From an uncultured Peptococcaceae bacterium (GTDB taxonomy: Bacteria > Bacillota > Dehalobacteriia > UBA4068 > UBA4997), in assembly GCA_965149945.1 (NCBI GenBank), contig CBCTTQ010000001.1, positions 60,637 to 124,636 on the forward strand: a stretch of 64,000 bases of DNA, in the 5' to 3' direction. The notes under the pieces are model-generated. The model made no database searches. It saw only the letters and a list, made by a program, of their open reading frames with translations, and was not told the origin of the DNA. A program made the translations under genes and the position numbers. Below are positions 17,200-61,839 of the stretch, in pieces; position 1 is the stretch's first letter; each line of letters begins with the position of its first letter.

Positions 17200-17232
17200 G
17201 AAAGACCCTTATGGGTCTTTCTTTGTTTTCCC
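17200..17232 (+). terminator. rho-independent terminator of the CaCA gene
   Basis: AAGACCC-ttat-GGGTCTT followed by TCTTTGTTTT. Confidence 0.55.
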
Positions 17233-18645
17233 GTCGCCGTTTGGGGGATTTTTTATTTTCTCTGTTTCGGCGGTTTCTTTGTTTTTTTGCTGTTTGTCGG
17301 GCTGTTTTTCATATTCTGTTTTTATCTTTTCGCGTAAGAGTATTTTCGGTTTTGCTGTTGGGAACAGGGGTTTTTGTGAAAAAGCGAAAATCAAAATGGG
17401 AAAATTTTCCTCTTTTGATGGGATTCTTTTCGAAAATTTGAAAAAATCAAGGATTAGGATTTTGCTAAAATATGTTTTCTCGTGGTTGCTTTTCATTATT
17501 TTACCAAAAAACTGTCTGTGGCAGGGAGAATCAGGAGGAATTGTTTTTCGTGCCTGTTCTCGCTATAATAAGGAAAGAAGATTCTTTTCATGGCGCCGCG
17601 CGCGGAAGGAGTCTGTCGCTTATTTTGTTTCGAGGAGTCGCGAGCGTTTCTTTGGTACGGCAAAACGATGATAAAATAACACAGAAACGCGGTCACGCGG
17701 CAGAGTGACGACAGCGCGGTAAGGAAGCAGACTGGTTGCGTGTCCGTCATTGCGCGAAAGGATGACAAGGCGTTTATTTTTCGAAAGATGAAATATTGTA
17801 AAAAAAGGATATCATAGAAGAAAAAGAGAATGGCGGGGAAGCTGAAAAGCAATATTTGCTCAGGATGAAGGTGAACCTTTGCTGTTATATGGTCGAATTT
17901 TGTCGTCGGGGATTTTCCTGAATTCGCTTCGGAGGATGAGGATTCATTCCTGAAAAAATCTTATATATAATATAGTAGAAAATTTTTCTTAAAAGGGAAA
18001 AAAACGGGGAAAAAGGAGAATTTTAGCAGGAAAAAACGCTGTGTAACGAGAAAAACAAGCATGGTTTTTCTCAGAGGAAAAAGTCTCCGCGGGAATTCCC
18101 GCGGGTCGGGCGGCGCCTATGTTCCGAATCGAGAAGGACGAGGATCTTTCTCCTAAAAAAGGACGTCTTTCGGCTGGATTCAACGAGGAAAGTTCCGTCG
18201 GCAAATATTAAATCGAGCGGTTAAAATTGTCAGTTAATTTTTCGAGAAATATCCTGTTTTCTTTTTTGTCTTGCGGAGCGGGGAAAAAAGACGCTGTTGA
18301 AAAATATCCCCAAGAGATTGGTGGAAAAAGGTGTTTTCTGTGGAAAACTCTGTGGAGAATTTGCGGCGTCATGGGGAAAGAAAAAATCCGCTTTTTCGGC
18401 GGACAGAAAAGAACAATCAAAAAAAGCATAAATATGCGTGGATTAACTGGAATAAAAAAAGAAATACAATTTTATATACAATATAATCCTTGGGTTTTTC
18501 AAAGGAAGAGAGCAAGTTTGCTTTTCCACCGAATCACTCTGTGGAAAATAGGGAAAAACTTCTGTTTTCTTTTACGATCGGTGGAGAAAGTTTTTTTTCG
18601 ATATCAAGACGGAAACAAAAACGCAGAAATATGAAGGAGGAACAA

Positions 18646-19431
18646 ATGAAAAATAAAGTTGAACTTTTTGATACGCACTGTCATTTGGACGATCCTAAGC
18701 TGAATGCTGATCTGTCCGGTGTGTTGGCACGGGCGAAGCAGGCGGGACTGGTGGGCATGGCCACTATCGGCTGCGATTATCGTTCTTCGCTGTTTGCTTT
18801 GCATCTGGCGGAAAAACATGAACAAGTGGTGGCGGCGGTGGGGGTACATCCTTCTGATGCCGATACTCTGACGCCGGAGATGCTGGAGGAAGTGGCAAAA
18901 CTGGCACAGGCGGAAAAAGCCCGCGCTATCGGCGAAATCGGCTTGGACTATCACTGGGACACCGTCCCGCGGGATCAGCAGAAAAAAGCCTTTGTGGAGC
19001 AAATCCATTTGGCAAAAGATCTGCATATGCCTATTATTATCCATGATCGGGAAGCCCACGGCGATTTGTTTAATATTTGCCGCAAAGAGCAGGCGGGCGC
19101 TTTCGGCGGGGTGATGCATTGTTTTTCCGGCAGTTGGGAACTGGCCAAAGAAGCCATGCGCATGGGATTTTTGATTTCTGTGGGCGGACCGCTCACTTTC
19201 AAAAACAGTCGCCAGCTGCCGGAAATCGTCAAACAAATCCCCCTGGATTATCTGCTGCTGGAAACAGACAGCCCCTATTTGACGCCGGAACCTTATCGCG
19301 GTAAAACCAACGAACCCGCCAATGTGTATTTTGTGGCGGAGCGAGCGGCGAGATTGCGCGCCATGGAAGTGGAGGAGCTGGCCCATATCACGACACAAAA
19401 CGCCAAAAAATTTTATGAAATTGAGGACTGA
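18646..19431 (+). CDS. tatD: TatD-family metal-dependent DNase/hydrolase
   Basis: VELFDTHCHLDD.., IGEIGLDYHWD, HxHxD and CFSG motifs. Start placed at the ATG at 18646, which has an AAGGAGG RBS (the ORF-track start at 18490 lacks an RBS). Confidence 0.85.
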   Translation: MKNKVELFDTHCHLDDPKLNADLSGVLARAKQAGLVGMATIGCDYRSSLFALHLAEKHEQVVAAVGVHPSDADTLTPEMLEEVAKLAQAEKARAIGEIGLDYHWDTVPRDQQKKAFVEQIHLAKDLHMPIIIHDREAHGDLFNICRKEQAGAFGGVMHCFSGSWELAKEAMRMGFLISVGGPLTFKNSRQLPEIVKQIPLDYLLLETDSPYLTPEPYRGKTNEPANVYFVAERAARLRAMEVEELAHITTQNAKKFYEIED

Positions 19432-25905: not shown

Positions 25906-27486
25906 TTAGTCAATGTTGGGGCCTGCCGCCGCGATTTCCGGAGCAACGCCTTTGTATTTTTTGAAGTTTTCCGCGAAGAGTTTCGCCAATTCTTTCGCGG
26001 TTTTATCATAATCTTCTTTGTCAGCCCAGGTATCTCTGGGGTTCAAAACTTCTGCCGGAACATTGGGGCAGCTCTGAGGAATAGACAGGTTGAAGATGGG
26101 GTCTACAACATATTCTACATCTTTCAGATCGCCGTTCAGGGCAGCGTTTACCATGGCTCTGGTATAAGCCAATTTCATTCTGGAGCCGGTGCCGTAACGG
26201 CCGCCGGTCCAACCGGTGTTCAGCAGATATACTTCCGCGCCGGTTTCTTTGATTTTCGCCTGCAGCAGGGAGGCGTATTCGCCCACTCTTCTGGACAGGA
26301 AGGGCTGACCGAAGCCGGCGGAGAAGGTCGCCTGGGGTTCGGTGATGCCGCGTTCGGTACCGGCCAGTTTGCTGGTGTAACCGGACAGATAATGATAGCT
26401 GGCCTGATTCATGTCCAATTTGGAGATGGGAGGCAAAACGCCGAAAGCGTCGGCTGTCAGGAAAACGATGGTTTTGGGATGACCGCCTTTGCCGTTGGGC
26501 ACCGCGCCGGGGATATGTTCCAGAGGATAACCGGTACGGGTGTTTTCGGTTCTGCTGCCGTCGTCATAATCGGGAACGCGGGTATCTTCGTCCATGATGA
26601 CATTTTCGATGACCGCGCCGAATTTAATAGCGTCCCAAATCTGGGGTTCGCCTTCTTTGGAAAGACGGATGGTTTTGGCATAGCAGCCGCCTTCAAAGTT
26701 AAAGATGCCGTTTTCAGACCAGCCGTGTTCATCGTCACCGATGAGCATACGGTTGGGGTCGGCGGAAAGAGTGGTTTTTCCGGTGCCGGAGAGACCGAAG
26801 AACAACGCGGTGGTGCCGTCAGCGCCGATGTTGGCGGAGCAGTGCATCGGGCATACATCCTGATCCGGCATGAAGTAGTTCATGGCGGTGAAGCAGGATT
26901 TTTTCATTTCGCCCGCGTAGCTGGCGGCGCCGATCAGGATTTCTTTTTCTTCCAGGTTCAAAATGATGAACGCTTCGGAACGAGTGCCGTCGATTTCCGG
27001 AATGGCTTTGAAGCCGGGGGTGCAAACCAGCGTGATTTCCGGCTGGAAATTTGCCCGTTCTTCTTCAGTCGGACGGCGCAGCAGCTGATGAATGAACAGA
27101 TTTTGCCATGCGTATTCGTTGATCACCCGAACAGCGATGCGGTGTTTTTCGTCAGCGCCGATGAAACCGTCGAAAACAAAAACATCTTTGCCTTCCAGAT
27201 AGGCCATCTGGCGGCGTTTGATGCCCGTGTATTTTTCTACGGAGATTCCTTTGTTGCTATCGCCCCAGTCGATGGTTTTCATTTCCTTTTCGGTTTCCAC
27301 AAAAAAACGGTCTTTGGGGGAGCGGCCGGTGTATTTGCCGGTATGTACGGACAACGCGCCGGTGGCGGTCAATTCCCCTTCTCCGCGGAGCAGGGCTTCT
27401 TCCACCAGGATGGCGGGAGAGAGATTGTCGTAAACTTCACCCAAATTGATGTAACCTTTTTTTGCGAGTTCTTCTCTCATAGACAT
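25906..27486 (-). CDS. pckA: phosphoenolpyruvate carboxykinase (ATP)
   Basis: 526 aa. Kinase-1a loop [13 protein letters not shown] and the PEPCK-ATP family domain. GAGGAGG RBS. Confidence 0.9.
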
Positions 27487-28033
27487 GTTCGAAATAACCT
27501 CCTCATGAATTGTAAAAATAATGGTGTTACAAATAGTATCAATATTATTTTAACATAATTATCGAAGAATTTCATCCCCAAACGGCAATTTCTCTGAAAA
27601 GTTCAAAAAAATGGCTCTTTGGGCGAAGTTGAAGGTTTTTTTTCTTAAATTCCGTGTCCTTTTTTTCTTTCCTTTATCTTTTTCTTGCAAATAGGAGAAA
27701 ACTTTTTATCGTCAAAGATCCGATTTTTGCTTTTGTCAATGGTTTTTTTTCTGAAAAAACTCTTCAATGGATGTTCAGCTATTCTTCAAATCTCATTCAT
27801 TGGTTCCTTGCTTGCGGATGGTAAGATAAAATCGTACCGGGAAGAACATTCGTCCTCCGCGCCGGTGTCCGACCTTCCCTGGAAACCGGCGAAATTTCTT
27901 CCCTCTCAGTGCTGGCGGGGCGGGGGTATGTTTTCTATTCCTTTGGGAAATGATGATCGCGTATTACTCTTTTTCGGTAAACGGAGTGATTGCCCAAGGT
28001 ACAAAAAAACAAAACAAAAAGAAACGAAAGAAC

Positions 28034-28071
28034 GAAAACTAAAAAGAAAAACTAAAAAGAAAAACTAAAAA
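28034..28071. repeat. three tandem copies of a 13-bp unit GAAAAACTAAAAA
   Basis: Direct tandem repeat seen in a purine-rich tract of the 1.1-kb pckA/pepF intergenic region. Confidence 0.5.
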
Positions 28072-28176
28072 TCGACGAAAACGGCAAAAGAAAAAAGATA
28101 TGCCGTGAAATTTGCCGCCGCGGCGGAAAACGCCGCGGCGCGGAAATAAGTTGTGTGAGCAAAGGAGAGAATAACT

Positions 28177-28305
28177 GTGTATACGGAAAAACAATTGGAA
28201 CGAAACGCGGTTCGAACATCAGAAATACGTCGATCCGCCAATCAGGAAAACCTGCTGTATTTTTGTCTGGCCTATTGGTATCGAATGAACGGAGGCCGCT
28301 TGTAA
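28177..28305 (+). CDS. candidate 42-aa small ORF (MYTEKQLERNAVRTSEIRRSANQENLLYFCLAYWYRMNGGRL)
   Basis: GTG start 7 nt after AAAGGAGAG. The stop overlaps a hairpin CCGCTT-gtaa-AAGCGG followed by GGATCCCTTTTTT. Below the ORF-track size cut-off. Confidence 0.25.
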   Translation: MYTEKQLERNAVRTSEIRRSANQENLLYFCLAYWYRMNGGRL

Positions 28306-28535
28306 AAGCGGGGATCCCTTTTTTGCCTGTGGTTACAATACCGCGGCGTCCGCCTGCCAAAAAGGCGGCGTCGGCAGGGCGGTCTTCACGGCGCATGGTT
28401 CAAAGATCAGTTGCCCCGCGGGGAAACTGAGACCCTACCATCCTGTTTTGAACAACGGCGGAGGATTTTTTGCCGGCCTTTATTGATTGCGTCGTCCCCC
28501 CAAAGAAGCCGCCGCCCTTCGGTTGTAACATAAAG

Positions 28536-28570
28536 AGAACCGCCCTTTTCGGGCGGTTCTTTTCTCTTTA
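28536..28570. terminator. hairpin terminator just downstream of pepF (bidirectional appearance)
   Basis: AGAACCGCCC-ttttc-GGGCGGTTCT followed by TTTCTCTTT on the plus strand. Starts 20 nt after the pepF stop on the minus strand. Confidence 0.5.
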
Positions 28571-28579
28571 AGAGAAGGA

Positions 28580-30380: not shown

Positions 30381-30562
30381 ATGGTAACAACCTCCTGTTG
30401 ATCAAAAAATTTTTTCACACTGTATAACCGCTGTAATATTTTTTCGCGAAATCCATATAATAGGAACGGATTTGTTTTTGTCCGCGCGATTGCGTGACGA
30501 CCGGGACAAAAATCCGCCGTCGGGCAATCCGAATTGTGAGACACGGAAGAAAGGATGATCAA

Positions 30563-30835
30563 ATGAGCGCCAAAGATTTGTTGAAAGGACTGGACACCAC
30601 CAGCTGGGAAAATTATAAGAAATCGCTGGGACAAGCTGTGGAAGCGGCGGAAGAATTCGGCATCGGTGACCGCGGCATCCATGCCTTTGCCGCTACCTTC
30701 GGCGAGTTTTTGAACCGCAATGCTCACGCCGATCTGCCGGAAAACCGCGCCATTCAGGAGCTGTGGCAGGTGGCGGATGAAAAAGAACAGCGTACTTTGG
30801 CCAAGTTGATGGTGAACCTTTGCCGCAAGGCGTAG
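30563..30835 (+). CDS. small cytoplasmic protein, possibly DUF3243-like
   Basis: 90 aa from the ATG at 30563 (GAAAGGATG RBS). ..AIQELWQVADEKEQRTLAKLMVNLC.. resembles DUF3243-type small proteins. Diverges from pepF. Confidence 0.55.
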   Translation: MSAKDLLKGLDTTSWENYKKSLGQAVEAAEEFGIGDRGIHAFAATFGEFLNRNAHADLPENRAIQELWQVADEKEQRTLAKLMVNLCRKA

Positions 30836-30864
30836 GGTTTTCATGTTCGACAGAAGAACAACAG

Positions 30865-30920
30865 GGTCGATCTTCCGATCGACCCTACATAAAAAGCATC
30901 TGCGCTTTTTCTTTTTCGCG
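30865..30920. terminator. hairpin terminator between convergent small genes
   Basis: Perfect stem AGGGTCGATC-ttcc-GATCGACCCT followed by a T-rich run (GCTTTTTCTTTTT). Confidence 0.45.
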
Positions 30921-30972
30921 CGTCACAGCCGCGGGTCGCCGTTTTTGGGCGAACCGAAATGCGTCGTTGGGA

Positions 30973-31179
30973 TTAATCCAACTGCTGGGCAAAAACGGTC
31001 ACTTCCCGCTTGGTATGTTTGGCGTCTTTAGGGTTTTCGAATTCCAGTACCAAATAGTCAAAATTTTTCTGATCGGTTAAAACATCACCGATTTGAAATT
31101 CTGTTTCAGCTTTCAAGCGCAGGCGATAGTTTTTGCCGTCCGGGATTTTTTCCTTAACCGTACACAAAATCATTTTCAT
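30973..31179 (-). CDS. hypothetical small protein (68 aa)
   Basis: AAGGAG-type RBS before ATGAAAATG. No family recognised. Confidence 0.45.
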   Translation of the reverse strand: MKMILCTVKEKIPDGKNYRLRLKAETEFQIGDVLTDQKNFDYLVLEFENPKDAKHTKREVTVFAQQLD

Positions 31180-31540
31180 CCACTCCTTCCCGTTTCACTG
31201 ATCCCTATCTAATATAATTTGCGGTTTGTCGCGTTTTCCCTGCTGTTTTTCGCGGGCGGTAAAATTTTTTTCCGTTGAATTGATGGTTTTTTCAATTTTT
31301 TTCGTTGTTTTGTTCGGTATTTGTCTTTATTTCCGTTTGTTGTTTGCCGCGTATTTTTTTTTCCTGTTGTTTTTTTAATTTTGTTCGTTTTTTTCTTTTG
31401 CCGCCGCGTCTTCTTCGGTTCTTGTTTTTCTCCCTTTGGTGGTTTTGCTGCTTTTGGGGAAGAAAACAATCGTCAAAAAGCGTGAAAATTGAACTGTAAG
31501 CCTGCCGGAACAGGAGGAATGATCGGTTTGGGGAGCCTGT

Positions 31541-31572
31541 CAAAAAAACCCTTCGACCCATAGGTCGAAGGG
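31541..31572 (-). terminator. rho-independent terminator after the small membrane-protein gene
   Basis: Minus strand: CCCTTCGACC-tatg-GGTCGAAGGG followed by a T7 run. Confidence 0.6.
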
Positions 31573-31594
31573 TTTGGCTCGGAGAGAGAGAACT

Positions 31595-31906
31595 TTATCG
31601 ATTACGGTTTCCTTTGCGCAGTTCATGTTTTTTTTGTACGGCAAAACGGTAAATGATATAATAGCCGACGGTGGGGAGCAGTGATCCCAAGATGTACCAG
31701 CCGCTGTTTTCGGTAAGGCCGGGACCGGTGAGGAGATAGAGAAAAGTTCCGATAGGGATCAATAAAGAAGCGATGGGTAAAATCAACCCCAGTTTGTCGC
31801 TTCTGCCGATGAGATAAACTTCCAAAAAGATGGACAACAACCAAAGCACTGCCGCCGCCATCATCAATATCGCAAACGTAACTGTGGACATAATTCCGTG
31901 ATGCAC
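31595..31906 (-). CDS. small membrane protein (2-3 TM), hypothetical
   Basis: 103-aa hydrophobic ORF 11 bp downstream of the DUF2089-like regulator gene. GTG start at 31906, or the ATG at 31891. Confidence 0.45.
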   Translation of the reverse strand: MHHGIMSTVTFAILMMAAAVLWLLSIFLEVYLIGRSDKLGLILPIASLLIPIGTFLYLLTGPGLTENSGWYILGSLLPTVGYYIIYRFAVQKKHELRKGNRNR

Positions 31907-31917
31907 CGCCTTTTTTG

Positions 31918-32214
31918 TTAGTTCTTTTGTTCTTTTTCGTATTCCGCGATCAACATATTTGCTGTTTCAAAATCAATTTTATCATTGATTGCCAACCGCT
32001 TGATGAAATTGATATAAGGGTCTTTAGCCATTTCCTCGTTGTCGGAAATTTTCCGAATCAACAGATCCAGCCGCTGACGTACGGTGGGATAAGTAACGCC
32101 GTATTGGTTCGCCATTTCTTTCAGCGAGCCGGAAGAGAGAACAAACTTTTTGATGAAAGTCAGTTCTTCCTGATCCAGATTGATTAACCATTCCGGCAGA
32201 ACGTCTAAGCTCAT
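31918..32214 (-). CDS. DUF2089-like HTH protein lacking the zinc ribbon
   Basis: ..LDQEELTFIKKFVLSSGSLKEMANQYGVTYPTVRQRLDLLIRKI.. matches the C-terminal sigma-region-4-like HTH of DUF2089 proteins. Start placed at the ATG at 32214 ([13 protein letters not shown]). Confidence 0.55.
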   Translation of the reverse strand: MSLDVLPEWLINLDQEELTFIKKFVLSSGSLKEMANQYGVTYPTVRQRLDLLIRKISDNEEMAKDPYINFIKRLAINDKIDFETANMLIAEYEKEQKN

Positions 32215-33075
32215 AATAATCCCCTCCTTTAAGTATTTATAACATATCATATAACCTGCTAAAAGTCAAACTAAAGAGGGCAAAAGTATGAAAAAATTTT
32301 GAAAAATTGATTAATATTGTCATTTTGAGAATGTTTTATTGTCGGTTTTCGATGAGTAGAAAAAAGGAGTTTTTCTCGATTTTTTTTACTTTTTTTTATG
32401 AAAAACAGTGATGTTTCCTTTGTTGCGGGGCTTTGCGAGGGGCGAAGATTTAGGCGTCTCCCGTTTTTTTTGCTAAATAGGAAGGTATTTTGTCTTTGGT
32501 CGTTTTTCCCCTTTGCGAAAAGAAAAAAATGATAAAAAAACAGACATTCCGAAATCATCGAGTTTTCTGATCCGTACCTTTTTCGCTGACCTTTGAGAGA
32601 GGCTTGTTCCTGTCGGCGCCGGGTTCATCTGCCATCCGCGTCGCTTTTGGGCTTCATTGGGAGCTTTGGGTGTTCTTTTAGGAAGCCCGGAAGAACCTTT
32701 GTCTTGTTGAAGAAAGAGAAGGTGCGGGAACAGGCGGGGTTCGAGTGTTCGCGGGAGAGCCGATGTTCCGTCGCCGGTCATGAAGGGGTGTCCCGTTTTG
32801 TGGAAAATCAAGATGGTTTTGCACAAGACGCCGTCGGTTTTCCCCATCAATAGGGGAAAACCAACGGCAAAAAGCAGGAAACGGCAGAAAAAAATCAAGA
32901 AAATCCCCCAATCCCCCGAAAAATCTATCCACATTTTCCACAGACGGTGGTGGATATTTTTCAGCAATTCTCATGATTTTTACGGCTATCCTTTCAAATG
33001 GGCAATGGCGCCAAAGGATTTATTTGAGATAGACTGTGTCGCGAGAACTTGTCGACGGATGGCGTGAGGCGGATG

Positions 33076-33720
33076 TTAGGGTTGGTCCAGCCAATGGGTG
33101 TCGTCGCTAATGGTCTTCAGAGGGATCTGCCGCCAGTCCGTCGCCGCTGCCTGGGAAAAGCCGCTGGCGGGATAGTCCTCCCGTCGGCAGCCTGTCAACA
33201 ATTGTTGCCAGGGATGTTCGGGCAGCGCCAACAACTGCCGGCAAAGTTCATCTTCTCCGGCGTTGATGATGTCGCTTCGCAGGGCGATGGCTGCCTCACT
33301 TTTGGGCAGACAACAATGGGTGCGGCAGACCAAAGGGCGATAGGGGTGGACGGCGCATTCCTGCTTATCCCGATTGAGAAAATGACAGCCATAGTCTGCC
33401 TGCCGTTTCAGAATGATGTCGATAGCGCCGTTTTCCAGCAATCGGATATCCGCCATTGCCGTCAGCCAGTGGGTCAGGGTGACGGCATCCTCTGTTGTTT
33501 GCAGCCGCTCCGCTACCCAGGGACGAGCTATGGCAAAGTCGGCGATCGTGAGGGGAATCCGTTCGTAACAGCAGGCGTCGCAGCCGCGGCAGTCCGCCAT
33601 GGTCGCTTCCTGAAAGGCGTCCAGCGCTTCCACATAGTCTCCCAGCGTGGCGCTGCCGTCTCCCGCTTCCAGGTCATAGCCGTATTGCCCCGGTGTGAAT
33701 TCTTTCAGATAAAACTTCAT
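33076..33720 (-). CDS. YkgJ/UPF0153-family putative Fe-S or Zn-binding protein
   Basis: 214 aa. Cys-rich CRGCDACC plus CxxHxxxPxxC motifs typical of the YkgJ family. Confidence 0.65.
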   Translation of the reverse strand: MKFYLKEFTPGQYGYDLEAGDGSATLGDYVEALDAFQEATMADCRGCDACCYERIPLTIADFAIARPWVAERLQTTEDAVTLTHWLTAMADIRLLENGAIDIILKRQADYGCHFLNRDKQECAVHPYRPLVCRTHCCLPKSEAAIALRSDIINAGEDELCRQLLALPEHPWQQLLTGCRREDYPASGFSQAAATDWRQIPLKTISDDTHWLDQP

Positions 33721-51117: not shown

Positions 51118-51415
51118 AACAGTTCCTCCTTCTGTTGGTTATCCGCGGGGTGAGCGGCAAAAAAAAACGCCCCTCTCTAGGGACGATGAAATCGTGGTAC
51201 CACCCTGGTTCGCTTTTGAGAAAGCCTCAGCGGATTGAAGTCCTCGGCGAATAACGGCGCCTGCCGTCCGCGGTTACGACCCCTGGGCGGGGATTCGCCG
51301 CGACCGCTCCCGAGCCATGTTCCCCTTTTTGTCCGCGGGAGGTTTCAGCTCCTCTCCCTCTCTGTAGCGGCACGCCAAAGGTACTCATCTCGTTCGCTGC
51401 GTTTTAGCATAATCT
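51118..51415 (-). promoter_or_regulatory. T-box riboswitch leader of metG (Met specifier)
   Basis: Minus-strand RNA carries the T-box motif AGGGUGGUACCACG (plus 51208-51193), followed by terminator CGUCCC-uagaga-GGGGCG and a U9 run. Stem I region has GA/AGUA elements and an AUG codon (..GGGGAACAUGGCU..). Confidence 0.8.
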
Positions 51416-61473: not shown

Positions 61474-61550
61474 TGGTACGCCAGGCGGGATTCGAACCCA
61501 CGACCTTTTGGTTCGTAGCCAAACACTCTATCCAGCTGAGCTACTGGCGC
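61474..61550 (-). tRNA. tRNA-Arg (anticodon ACG)
   Basis: Minus-strand cloverleaf GCGCCAGUAGCUCAGCUGGAUAGAGUGUUUGGCUACGAACCAAA..GGGUUCGAAUCCCGCCUGGCGUACCA with encoded CCA. Anticodon loop CUACGAA. Confidence 0.85.
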
Positions 61551-61615
61551 GCGATACTCTGTTTATAAGGATTCGCTGCTTTTGGAGAAATTCCTGCCTA
61601 AACAGAGTATTTTTT

Positions 61616-61710
61616 TGGCGGAGAGCAAGGGATTCGAACCCTCGATACAGCTTTTGAACCGTATACTCGCTTAGCAGGCGAGCGCCTTCGACCGACTCGG
61701 CCAACTCTCC
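61616..61710 (-). tRNA. tRNA-Ser (anticodon GCU), type II with long variable arm
   Basis: GGAGAGUUGGCCGAGUCGGUCGAAGGCGCUCGCCUGCUAAGCGAG..GGGUUCGAAUCCCUUGCUCUCCGCCA. Anticodon loop CUGCUAA. Confidence 0.85.
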
Positions 61711-61750
61711 ATGTTTAAAATCCTCTCTGCTGTGCCGCGCCAAAACTGTT

Positions 61751-61839
61751 TGGCGGAGAGGATGGGATTCGAACCCATGACACATTACTGTGCGACGGTT
61801 TTCAAGACCGCTCCGTTATGACCACTTCGGTACCTCTCC
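61751..61839 (-). tRNA. tRNA-Ser (anticodon UGA), type II
   Basis: GGAGAGGUACCGAAGUGGUCAUAACGGAGCGGUCUUGAAAACCGUC..AUGGGUUCGAAUCCCAUCCUCUCCGCCA. Anticodon loop CUUGAAA. Confidence 0.85.

Follow-up and report, generated by a model that had tools for sequence, protein, structure and literature searches.

Do the small genes and the long non-coding stretch that lie between pepF and ykgJ on the chromosome of an uncultured Peptococcaceae bacterium belong together, and what might they do? The window analysed here is the whole stretch of 64,000 nucleotides (nt) taken from contig CBCTTQ010000001.1, and its coordinates are used throughout. At 30401-33075 coding density is about 40%: four small genes and a stretch free of open reading frames (ORFs) lie here, neighboured by ykgJ, gpmI, tpiA, pepF and pckA. 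The initial annotation treated the four genes as one cluster and singled out two of them, for a DUF2089-like helix-turn-helix (HTH) protein and a small membrane protein, as a signal-sensing regulatory module and as uncharacterised biology. The explanation that we favour overall, at a probability of about 0.55, is a self-contained module made up of this pair and a gene of the clade for a protein of 66 amino acids (aa), situated beside a neutral, recombined spacer; the fourth gene, encoding a DUF3243 protein, is a bystander outside the module. The parts of the module, in the order of transcription, are as follows.

32241 to 32269, minus strand: module promoter from a promoter scan, TTGACT, 17 nt, TGnTATGTT, unique in the window
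31918 to 32214, minus strand: DUF2089 gene, 98 aa, HTH plus a SHOCT-like two-helix domain at the C-terminus
31595 to 31891, minus strand: partner gene, 98 aa, three transmembrane (TM) segments, LGLILP motif and basic cytoplasmic tail (predicted from hydropathy and motif)
31542 to 31572, minus strand: intrinsic terminator of the DUF2089-partner operon, CCCTTCGACC-TATG-GGTCGAAGGG followed by U7 (stem 31549-31572)
31180 to 31541, minus strand: low-complexity spacer, A-rich on the gene strand
30973 to 31173, minus strand: 66-aa gene (68 aa with 31179 as the start), an orphan whose product is predicted to be all-beta; it completes the clade block as third gene

All four small ORFs are genuine genes, as first annotated, with three of their starts now corrected. 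Comparison loci came from the window's own species (W) and from three related lineages, represented by L027, by L001-L006 and by L019, L026 and L043. Human-gut-type metagenome contigs (L008-L018) carry identical or near-identical copies of the locus, and L019, a metagenome-assembled genome (MAG) labelled Peptococcaceae bacterium, is the closest named genome, with a DUF2089 protein 91% identical to that of W; the identity of this protein to W is 93% in L001-L006 and 91-92% in L019/L026/L043. Between W and L027 the small genes share 84-99% aa identity at a synonymous divergence (dS) of 0.42-0.74. Metagenomes queried with ykgJ gave no match, and queried with a promoter 20-mer gave one short contig. 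We trained a codon log-odds score on ten genes of the window that have homologue support; it gives +0.74 for luxS, which was held out, and for the four small genes it lies at +0.23 to +0.46 bits per codon in frame, with negative values in the five remaining frames. The ratio of nonsynonymous to synonymous divergence (dN/dS) relative to L027 is 0.07 for the DUF3243 gene, 0.017 for the 66-aa gene, 0.22 for the partner and 0.009 for the DUF2089 gene. It is these codon scores and ratios (0.009-0.22), together with the Pfam matches described below, that identify the four as genes.

The DUF2089 gene starts at ATG 32214 behind AAGGAGG, which gives 98 rather than 110 aa; a further in-frame ATG upstream, at 32250, overlaps the promoter. 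The partner ORF spans 31595-31906, and its start is most likely ATG 31891, which gives 98 aa and a gap of 26 nt, not 11, to the DUF2089 gene. The two-gene minus-strand unit, a DUF2089 gene followed by a membrane protein gene, thus stands as initially described, with a gap that is likely 26 nt and lengths of 98 and 98 aa. It is most likely driven by the sigma-A-type promoter at 32241-32269, where TTTGACTTTTAGCAGGTTATATG, which covers the -35 hexamer together with the greater part of the spacer, does not vary among W, L027, L001 and L026/L043 while the DNA just upstream cannot be aligned; the promoter spacer is a possible operator. At the other end of the operon, L027 keeps the terminator stem by way of a compensatory T>C / A>G change.

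The DUF2089 protein matches PF09862 (E ~3e-17, 62.4-62.7 bits against a gathering cutoff of 33.4) and the SHOCT-like PF22746 (E ~1e-7, 31.4-31.9 bits against a cutoff of 27), and in Pfam nothing beyond these HTH and SHOCT-like domains. The zinc ribbon is absent from it, as had been noted: only 12 residues precede the HTH, and the protein has no Cys pairs. This absence, which had been regarded as a departure from the norm, is not unusual. A search of 5.8 billion proteins returned 2,806 DUF2089 homologues, and the best 120 of these are 96-155 aa long and carry Pfam HTH or HTH plus SHOCT entries only (two list the HTH alone); all 40 of 40 members that were rescanned and aligned have both domains, no other domain at a significant level and no zinc ribbon. 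Because these 120 best homologues and 40 aligned members share the short architecture, the zinc-ribbon-less form is a large, ordinary subfamily of DUF2089 and not an aberration. Its HTH appears to resemble region 4 of sigma-70 factors: it matches TIGR02937 at E 1e-4, below the cutoff, Sigma70_r4 is found in 4/40 members, and matches to sigma-factor PHROGs are weak. An AlphaFold2 (AF2) model of the protein has six helices, including C-terminal helices at residues 66-76 and 82-97, with a moderate pLDDT of 67; its Foldseek neighbours are of YlxM, LuxR and sigma-4 type, none of them significant (E > 0.6).

The partner is matched by no Pfam or NCBIfam model, and neither the window protein nor any of eight relatives has a hit at E <= 1 to the Pfam models for LiaI/LiaF-TM, PspC or Toastrack. 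By the positive-inside rule, read from the sequence, its topology would be N-out/C-in, with the basic C-terminal tail in the cytoplasm. Searches with a single partner sequence found close relatives only (a word-indexed search two close relatives, full HMMER eight matches with two true relatives among them), and homology was therefore established through synteny and profile-profile comparison. With hhalign, the profile of the clade partners aligns to partners from other clades at 94% (E 1e-7), and a clostridial profile with the window partner as first sequence aligns to a Bacilli/plasmid profile at 98.1% (E 1e-13); the latter profile includes the partner encoded beside an aureocin-A53-family gene on a Bacillus toyonensis plasmid. 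A local hidden Markov model (HMM) of the partner also finds partners in IMG/VR at E 1e-13 to 1e-30. The shared features are E/Q in TM1, LG(L/I)(I/L)LP at the opening of TM2, (N/L)(I/L)PT in TM3 and a basic tail, and the partners make up a single homologous family that has no database model. Some genomes, seen in L020 (6328-7144) and L023 (6285-6914), carry two tandem partner-family genes after one DUF2089 gene, and one of these tandem copies, of 165 aa, has a long insertion between TM segments.

The partner gene lies directly 3' of the DUF2089 gene in every relative's locus that has downstream sequence, that is, in eight distinct chromosomal, three plasmid and eight IMG/VR loci. Partners in these loci are 92-114 aa long (one has 165 aa), with two to four hydrophobic segments in a hydropathy scan, mostly three. 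The chromosomal loci are those of Desulfitobacterium dehalogenans, of three gut MAGs (Eubacterium/Anaerotignum MAGs) and of the three related lineages, and the plasmid loci are from Enterococcus durans, B. toyonensis and Lactococcus lactis. On the B. toyonensis plasmid the pair adjoins genes annotated as an aureocin-A53-family bacteriocin, a PH-domain protein and an ATP-binding cassette (ABC) transporter, and on the Lactococcus and E. durans plasmids it lies between insertion sequence (IS) elements, with no bacteriocin gene annotated in the inspected stretch. In the IMG/VR contig L031 (4001-6000) the pair is directly upstream of an ORF judged portal-like by eye, an arrangement which suggests that prophages can carry it as an accessory cassette. 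In D. dehalogenans (L007, 5133-6906) a BlaI/BlaR1-type pair (Penicillinase_R plus Peptidase_M56), another membrane-sensor and repressor system, is located about 0.5 kb downstream of the pair. Genes for a bacteriocin, a PH-domain protein or an ABC transporter are absent from the surroundings of the module in the window, and the ORFs of the gaps have no Pfam match; a 44-aa cationic ORF (32398-32532) has no ribosome-binding site (RBS), and L027 carries a frameshift in it. Together, the HTH protein and the small membrane protein form a genuine, strongly co-conserved pair, found in all relative loci with downstream sequence and with partners joined by hhalign values of 94-98%, and from this distribution the pair is a general, mobile cassette of the Bacillota of which bacteriocin loci are one host.

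What travels together within the clade is larger than the pair and smaller than the four-gene cluster that the initial annotation had drawn. The neighbourhood comparison that it called for finds the pair conserved and not the four-gene cluster, whose genes fall into three transcription units. In L043 the promoter, the pair and the 66-aa gene are located between rapZ and a DUF1287/uvrA region instead of in the ykgJ...DUF3243-pepF context, and tblastn finds the 66-aa gene solely beside the pair and within this clade, and DUF3243, ykgJ and pepF solely in the W/L027/L001 context. In view of the different context in L043 and of these distributions, we conclude that the Peptococcaceae-like clade has one conserved promoter-to-stop block consisting of the DUF2089 gene, the partner and the 66-aa gene, without DUF3243. 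The 66-aa gene starts at the second ATG, 31173, the only ATG with a fitting Shine-Dalgarno (SD) spacing; the first ATG is absent in L043, and gene callers likewise give 66 aa. The libraries, plasmids, phages and viral contigs searched contain nothing that matches its product, and its fold prediction is uninformative.

The pyrimidine-rich low-complexity tract reported at 31200-31500 is present (GC 0.33-0.36, AT skew -0.6 to -0.7) and belongs to the A-rich spacer that separates the partner from the 66-aa gene. The partner stop and the 66-aa start are 421-424 nt apart in strains of W (the window has 421, L008 has 423), and the distance is 292 in L027, 157 in L019/L043 and 151 in L001, and the spacer is only 20-54% identical to L027, with large indels, and hence fast-evolving. 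Unlike the rest, its last ~75 nt before the 66-aa start are conserved and presumably hold the promoter and RBS of that gene. A lysine-rich protein encoded in the tract was considered and rejected on the indels in L027, negative in-frame scores and the lack of a Pfam match. Other long spacers of the window carry similar A-rich tracts.

The features at the downstream edge of the block concern the DUF3243 gene and the hairpins between the convergent genes.

30563 to 30835, plus strand: DUF3243/YflH-like gene, 90 aa, its own transcription unit and a syntenic neighbour of the module
30861 to 30888, minus strand: strong hairpin of 11-12 bp with GGGTCGAT stem and U-rich tail, terminator of the 66-aa gene (terminator scan)
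30891 to 30917, plus strand: weaker AAAAAGC/GCTTTTT hairpin followed by CTTTTTC, read from the sequence and present in the minimum free energy (MFE) fold

The DUF3243 gene matches PF11588 (E 5e-23, 81.6 bits against a cutoff of 27), its product matches B. subtilis YflH (PDB 3D0W) at E 3e-8, and its codon score in frame is +0.43. In L019/L043 and in all loci from outside the clade the module has no adjacent DUF3243 gene. The strong hairpin does sit between the two convergent genes, which had been thought to share it as a terminator, but its U-rich tail serves the minus-strand gene only; the stem occurs once in the window, is identical in L027 and is retained in L001. The weaker hairpin next to it is likely the terminator of the DUF3243 gene, to judge from its sequence.

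Upstream of the module, the ORF-free stretch and its GC-rich core are real features, the former measuring 861 bp (32215-33075). Every ORF inside it has a negative codon score and no Pfam match, and GC is 0.57 at 32600-32799 compared with 0.26-0.40 in the flanks. Beyond the promoter it can be divided as follows.

32270 to 32426, no strand: AT-rich non-coding DNA, 26-35% GC, ~60% identical to L027 and fast-diverging
32427 to 32790, no strand: GC-rich non-coding core, neutral-looking and apparently exchanged recently between lineages
32795 to 32868, minus strand: two hairpins, one of which, at 32830-32868 (inverted repeat I4), has arms of 16 bp and forms 17 pairs when folded as RNA
32799 to 32957: DnaA-box-like cluster, with a tandem TGTGGAAAA-TGTGGATAG at 32925-32942 (gene orientation), an inverted TTTTCCACA at 32799-32807 and further, weaker sites at 32817-32825 and 32949-32957

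At the same junction L001-L006 hold a gene for a 254-aa flavodoxin-like/4Fe-4S protein, and the ORF-free stretch most likely took the place of that gene as lineage-specific non-coding DNA. The GC-rich core may be what is left of a decayed gene, but descent from the L001 ferredoxin-type gene was rejected, since tblastn gave nothing better than E 0.29. A mobile element was likewise rejected: the window contains the gap sequence only once, its candidate terminal inverted repeat I1 is not kept in L027, and searches of phages, plasmids and viral contigs returned nothing. Another ORF-free stretch, of ~970 bp, separates pckA from pepF (27611-28579), with A-rich tandem repeats at 28001-28071 and GC-rich hairpins; L001 has a three-gene amino-acid ABC transporter at that position.

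The most striking property of the core is its similarity to L027, 98-100% (98.9%) over 32427-32791, compared with 81-94% in neighbouring genes and ~60% in the neighbouring spacer. Within W, the core is at 97.8% identity the most polymorphic part of 15 kb, in which genes are 99.4-100% identical, and L027 carries alleles that segregate among W strains, with only three private differences. The same excess identity to L027 is seen in pckA; across window 25906-27650 and L027 5153-6733, pckA is 95-100% identical and the adjacent pepF 81-93%. The W and L027 lineages thus look mosaic, as if from recent homologous recombination. Given the polymorphism of the core, the nesting of L027 alleles, the same excess in pckA and predicted base pairs that are not preserved, the near-identity is probably better explained by recent exchange than by constraint. 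The L027 contig ends inside the core, and this end may be chimeric. Several independent metagenome contigs break off in or beside the ORF-free stretch, with L009, L010, L012 and L027 ending and L019 starting there (window 32340-32840), which could come from homopolymer runs, hairpins, strain variation or an unseen repeat.

Next to the core, the hairpins at 32795-32868 probably act as terminator, or form the 3' structure, of the tpiA-gpmI-ykgJ transcript; at the corresponding position L001 carries a hairpin of 13 bp that ends in a U-rich tail. The TGTGG-repeat site of the initial annotation exists and corresponds to the DnaA-box-like cluster. The relaxed DnaA consensus TTWTNCACA is matched exactly at 32799, 32817 and 32934, with one mismatch at 32925 and with two at 32949, so that at least three boxes fall within ~200 bp. 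In gene orientation the gap reads TGTGGAAAA-TGTGGATAG, 117 nt, TTTTCCACA, and L001 after ykgJ reads TGTGGAAAA-TGTGGAAAA, 118 nt, TTTTCCACA, these being its only TTTTCCACA sites in an 18-kb locus; the sequence between the boxes cannot be aligned between W and L001, and conservation was checked in this one other species. The box trio, which surrounds a strong hairpin, is the one conserved cis-feature of the gap. Use of TGTGGAAAA as an operator of the module was rejected, as the only box of L043 is inside rapZ and the boxes of L001 are separated from the module by a gene.

How the module might work can be framed with the help of bacteriocin loci in which the same arrangement has been described. 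In the enterocin DD14 locus, ORF C is a DUF2089 protein of 89 aa and ORF D a membrane protein of 90 aa (PMC7332713), and the bawcin cluster holds the same arrangement as BawC/BawB (PMC10707071); the two clusters thus combine a DUF2089 protein with a 90-94-aa protein with three TM segments (PMC7332713, PMC10707071). A 2026 study found DdD to be required for self-immunity and predicted three TM helices and a long cytoplasmic helix for it, while DdC was assigned no function (PMC13262744). The pair is accordingly not the uncharacterised biology that it was first taken for: it has the arrangement of DdC/DdD and BawC/BawB, and immunity by DdD is published (PMC7332713, PMC10707071, PMC13262744). In the model that we propose, the membrane protein would be the working part and would protect or stabilise the membrane against membrane-active peptides, by analogy with what is reported for DdD. 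The DUF2089 protein would be its dedicated regulator, binding the conserved promoter spacer at 32241-32269, and would be held at, or released from, the inner face of the membrane through contact of its SHOCT-like tail with the cytoplasmic tail of the partner; expression of the operon would then follow the state of the membrane. As the module here has no bacteriocin genes, it is proposed to act as an orphan immunity or membrane-stress module. The gap would contain the hairpin at the 3' end of the ykgJ operon, with DnaA-box-like sites on its flanks, and would otherwise be neutral DNA recently exchanged by recombination. Overall a membrane-linked regulatory or protective role of the pair is plausible, and the earlier idea of a signal-sensing regulatory module was broadly right for the pair, from which DUF3243 has to be removed and to which the 66-aa gene has to be added.

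Several other explanations compete with parts of this account, and for the gap they concern a hidden gene, an RNA and a DnaA-binding element. The longest open frame of the gap, 164 aa at 32473-32967 (220 and 181 aa in metagenome strains), would be improbable by chance in ~860 bp, and gene callers annotated it in two contigs. That it is a real gene is nonetheless very improbable: its codon score in frame is -0.24, an SD sequence is absent before either start, one of which lies within a DnaA-like box, and among 5.8 billion proteins its only homologue is at the same locus, with no Pfam match. W strains are 98-99% identical across the gap and differ by 1-nt indels, which shift the frame, and by a TAG/TGG change of the stop, such that the ORF has 164, 181 or 220 aa; its polymorphisms are spread 3/5/3 over codon positions. 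A structured non-coding RNA of ~350-500 nt, probably on the plus strand and antisense to the neighbours and under purifying selection, would account for the GC-rich island amid AT-rich flanks and for the 98-100% identity to L027 over 32427-32791 between flanking genes at 81-94% (dS 0.42-0.74). It would also fit the folding energy of 32560-32900 (341 nt), with a plus-strand z of -5.9 to -6.5 and a minus-strand z of -3.6 to -4.4 against a background of 48 windows of 341 nt with mean -0.89, sd 0.99 and minimum -3.4. With windows of 200 nt, however, only 32715-32914, the hairpin segment, is unusual (z -3.8 to -4.4, to be set against -0.9 +/- 1.0 from the 341-nt windows), and those within 32415-32714 have z >= 0. 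Variants keep the predicted pairs in 5/10 cases on the plus and 3/6 on the minus strand, with no compensatory pattern seen, the within-species polymorphism (97.8%) and nested L027 alleles point to recent exchange, and there is neither a convincing promoter/terminator pair nor a copy in the window, phages, plasmids or viral contigs. Rfam gives no family at gathering score for 30800-33200, and the best matches of a permissive search (E <= 10) are eukaryotic families at 14-24 bits, chance-level and far below thresholds; in the whole window the only gathering-score matches are a T-box leader (110 bits) and three tRNA genes (51176-51406 and 61477-61839, both on the minus strand). We thus regard such an RNA as unlikely, and neither a coding signal nor an Rfam match points to a hidden gene or a known RNA family in the stretch. 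It is possible, if somewhat doubtful, and compatible with the explanation preferred here, that the box cluster is a DnaA-titrating or DnaA-regulated element and the reason why the site is kept. Three exact boxes and others with one and two mismatches within 160 bp would amount to a triple expected ~5e-4 times per window from the shuffled rate, TGTGGAWAA occurs 8 times in the window against 1.4 expected, the long spacer that precedes tatD holds another cluster, and L001 shares the layout (118 versus 117 nt) although the intervening sequence is unalignable. On the other side, some box matches are in coding sequence (gpmI and tpiA in the window, rapZ in L043), and the boxes, being inverted repeats, pair with each other in the RNA fold as well, so that they may be 3' RNA structure or sites of another factor; the window has no GC-skew switch. 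The tatD spacer (17200-18640) spans ~1.4 kb without an ORF of at least 150 aa upstream of a TatD-family gene (18646-19431), contains T-rich low-complexity tracts and carries TGTGGAAAA-CTC-TGTGGAGAA at 18339-18359 and TTTTCCACC-N10-TGTGGAAAA at 18521-18548. Cumulative GC skew rises throughout 1-64000 without a switch, making the plus strand G-rich, and most homologue-supported genes at 25-51 kb are on the minus strand, which is unusual for Bacillota if the skew marks the leading strand.

For the pair itself, the alternative is a toxin-antitoxin, abortive-infection or phage-defence cassette, with the membrane protein as toxin and the HTH protein as repressor or antitoxin. The position between IS elements on plasmids, the presence in IMG/VR contigs (once directly upstream of the by-eye portal-like ORF), the small size and the tight coupling, many loci having the two genes overlapping or only a few nt apart, would all suit such a cassette. 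However, no PADLOC model matches any of the three proteins (DUF2089, partner and 66-aa); where the membrane protein has been studied, in one case, it is protective rather than toxic, and its deletion is harmful only if the bacteriocin is made (PMC13262744); and within the clade the module is vertically conserved among housekeeping genes, with a regulator dN/dS of 0.009 that indicates very strong purifying selection. We consider a defence cassette decidedly unlikely. A bolder proposal, speculative and on balance improbable in its full form, is that the Bacillota use the pair as a general signal relay that needs no kinase, in which a sigma-4-like HTH protein would be held at the membrane by its SHOCT-like tail on the cytoplasmic tail of the partner, be released once membrane-active peptides disturb the partner, and switch on protection; bacteriocin loci, plasmids and phages would have borrowed it, and the clade would have added the 66-aa beta-protein.

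Some observations tell against the preferred explanation of an immunity or membrane-stress module beside a neutral spacer. An immunity role is a guess here, since no bacteriocin, PH-domain or ABC gene is nearby, and kinship with DdD is drawn from the architecture and from the bacteriocin-linked Bacillus partner. Peptococcaceae partners have no C-terminal (E/Q)MK(I/A)KDL motif, which is common to the other partners, and the proposed docking helix may therefore differ or be absent in this clade. Binding of the DUF2089 protein to DNA, to its own promoter and to the partner is a prediction from sequence and model, and the AF2 model is only moderate (pLDDT 67), with fold matches that are not significant. 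Finally, 32715-32914 folds far better than shuffled sequence, which the preferred explanation accounts for only partly.

Clostridia and Bacilli encode thousands of short DUF2089 proteins, and we found an experimental function only for the membrane partner, in one bacteriocin locus. The chromosomal, plasmid and viral settings, together with one homologous partner family, argue for a general membrane-linked module rather than a bacteriocin accessory. For annotation, the locus also illustrates that a spacer which is long, ORF-free, GC-rich, well-folding and near-identical between lineages can be explained by gene replacement and recombination, and is not necessarily a new RNA.

The smaller elements of the locus have known counterparts. 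The 90-aa plus-strand gene is a clear member of the family of B. subtilis YflH (DUF3243, PDB 3D0W), tied to the module just by local synteny in 3/4 of the lineages/species compared. The putative DnaA-box cluster is like the B. subtilis DnaA-box clusters and E. coli datA in having consensus boxes packed into a non-coding site that is kept between species, but it comprises only three to five boxes.

Extracytoplasmic function (ECF) sigma factors and their membrane anti-sigma factors resemble the pair in that an HTH of the sigma-70 region 4 type is encoded just upstream of a small membrane protein, and the proposed working logic, sequestration at the membrane, is alike. The window protein has a region-4-like HTH only, however, with a likeness below the curated cutoff, and without region 2 it cannot be a sigma factor; nothing indicates an anti-sigma domain in the partner. 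In their 2024 work on envelope stress and the phage shock protein (PSP) system, Ravi et al. described DUF2089 proteins as a zinc ribbon, an HTH and a SHOCT-like domain with LiaI-LiaF-TM, PspC or Toastrack partners, and SHOCT-like domains were proposed to anchor proteins at the inner membrane leaflet (PMC11237479). The window protein shares the HTH and SHOCT-like match, the small membrane partner and a predicted route from a membrane-proximal signal to transcription, whereas it lacks the zinc ribbon, its partner has no LiaI/LiaF-TM, PspC or Toastrack match, and its operon contains neither a sigma factor nor a two-component system. The closest systems are DdC/DdD, BawC/BawB and toyoncin ORF12/ORF11, in which a zinc-ribbon-less DUF2089 protein of ~90-100 aa likewise stands beside a cationic three-TM protein of ~90-95 aa; in the window, too, a DUF2089 gene is followed on the same strand, after a 26-nt gap, by a gene for a three-TM protein, of 98 aa. 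In contrast to those clusters, the module has neither a structural gene for a bacteriocin nor a PH-domain exporter nor an ABC transporter in its vicinity, it is chromosomal and lies amid housekeeping genes, its partner has no MKxKDL motif, and a 66-aa gene is attached. On this comparison, the module of the window appears to be a bacteriocin-free member of the DdC/DdD type of pair.

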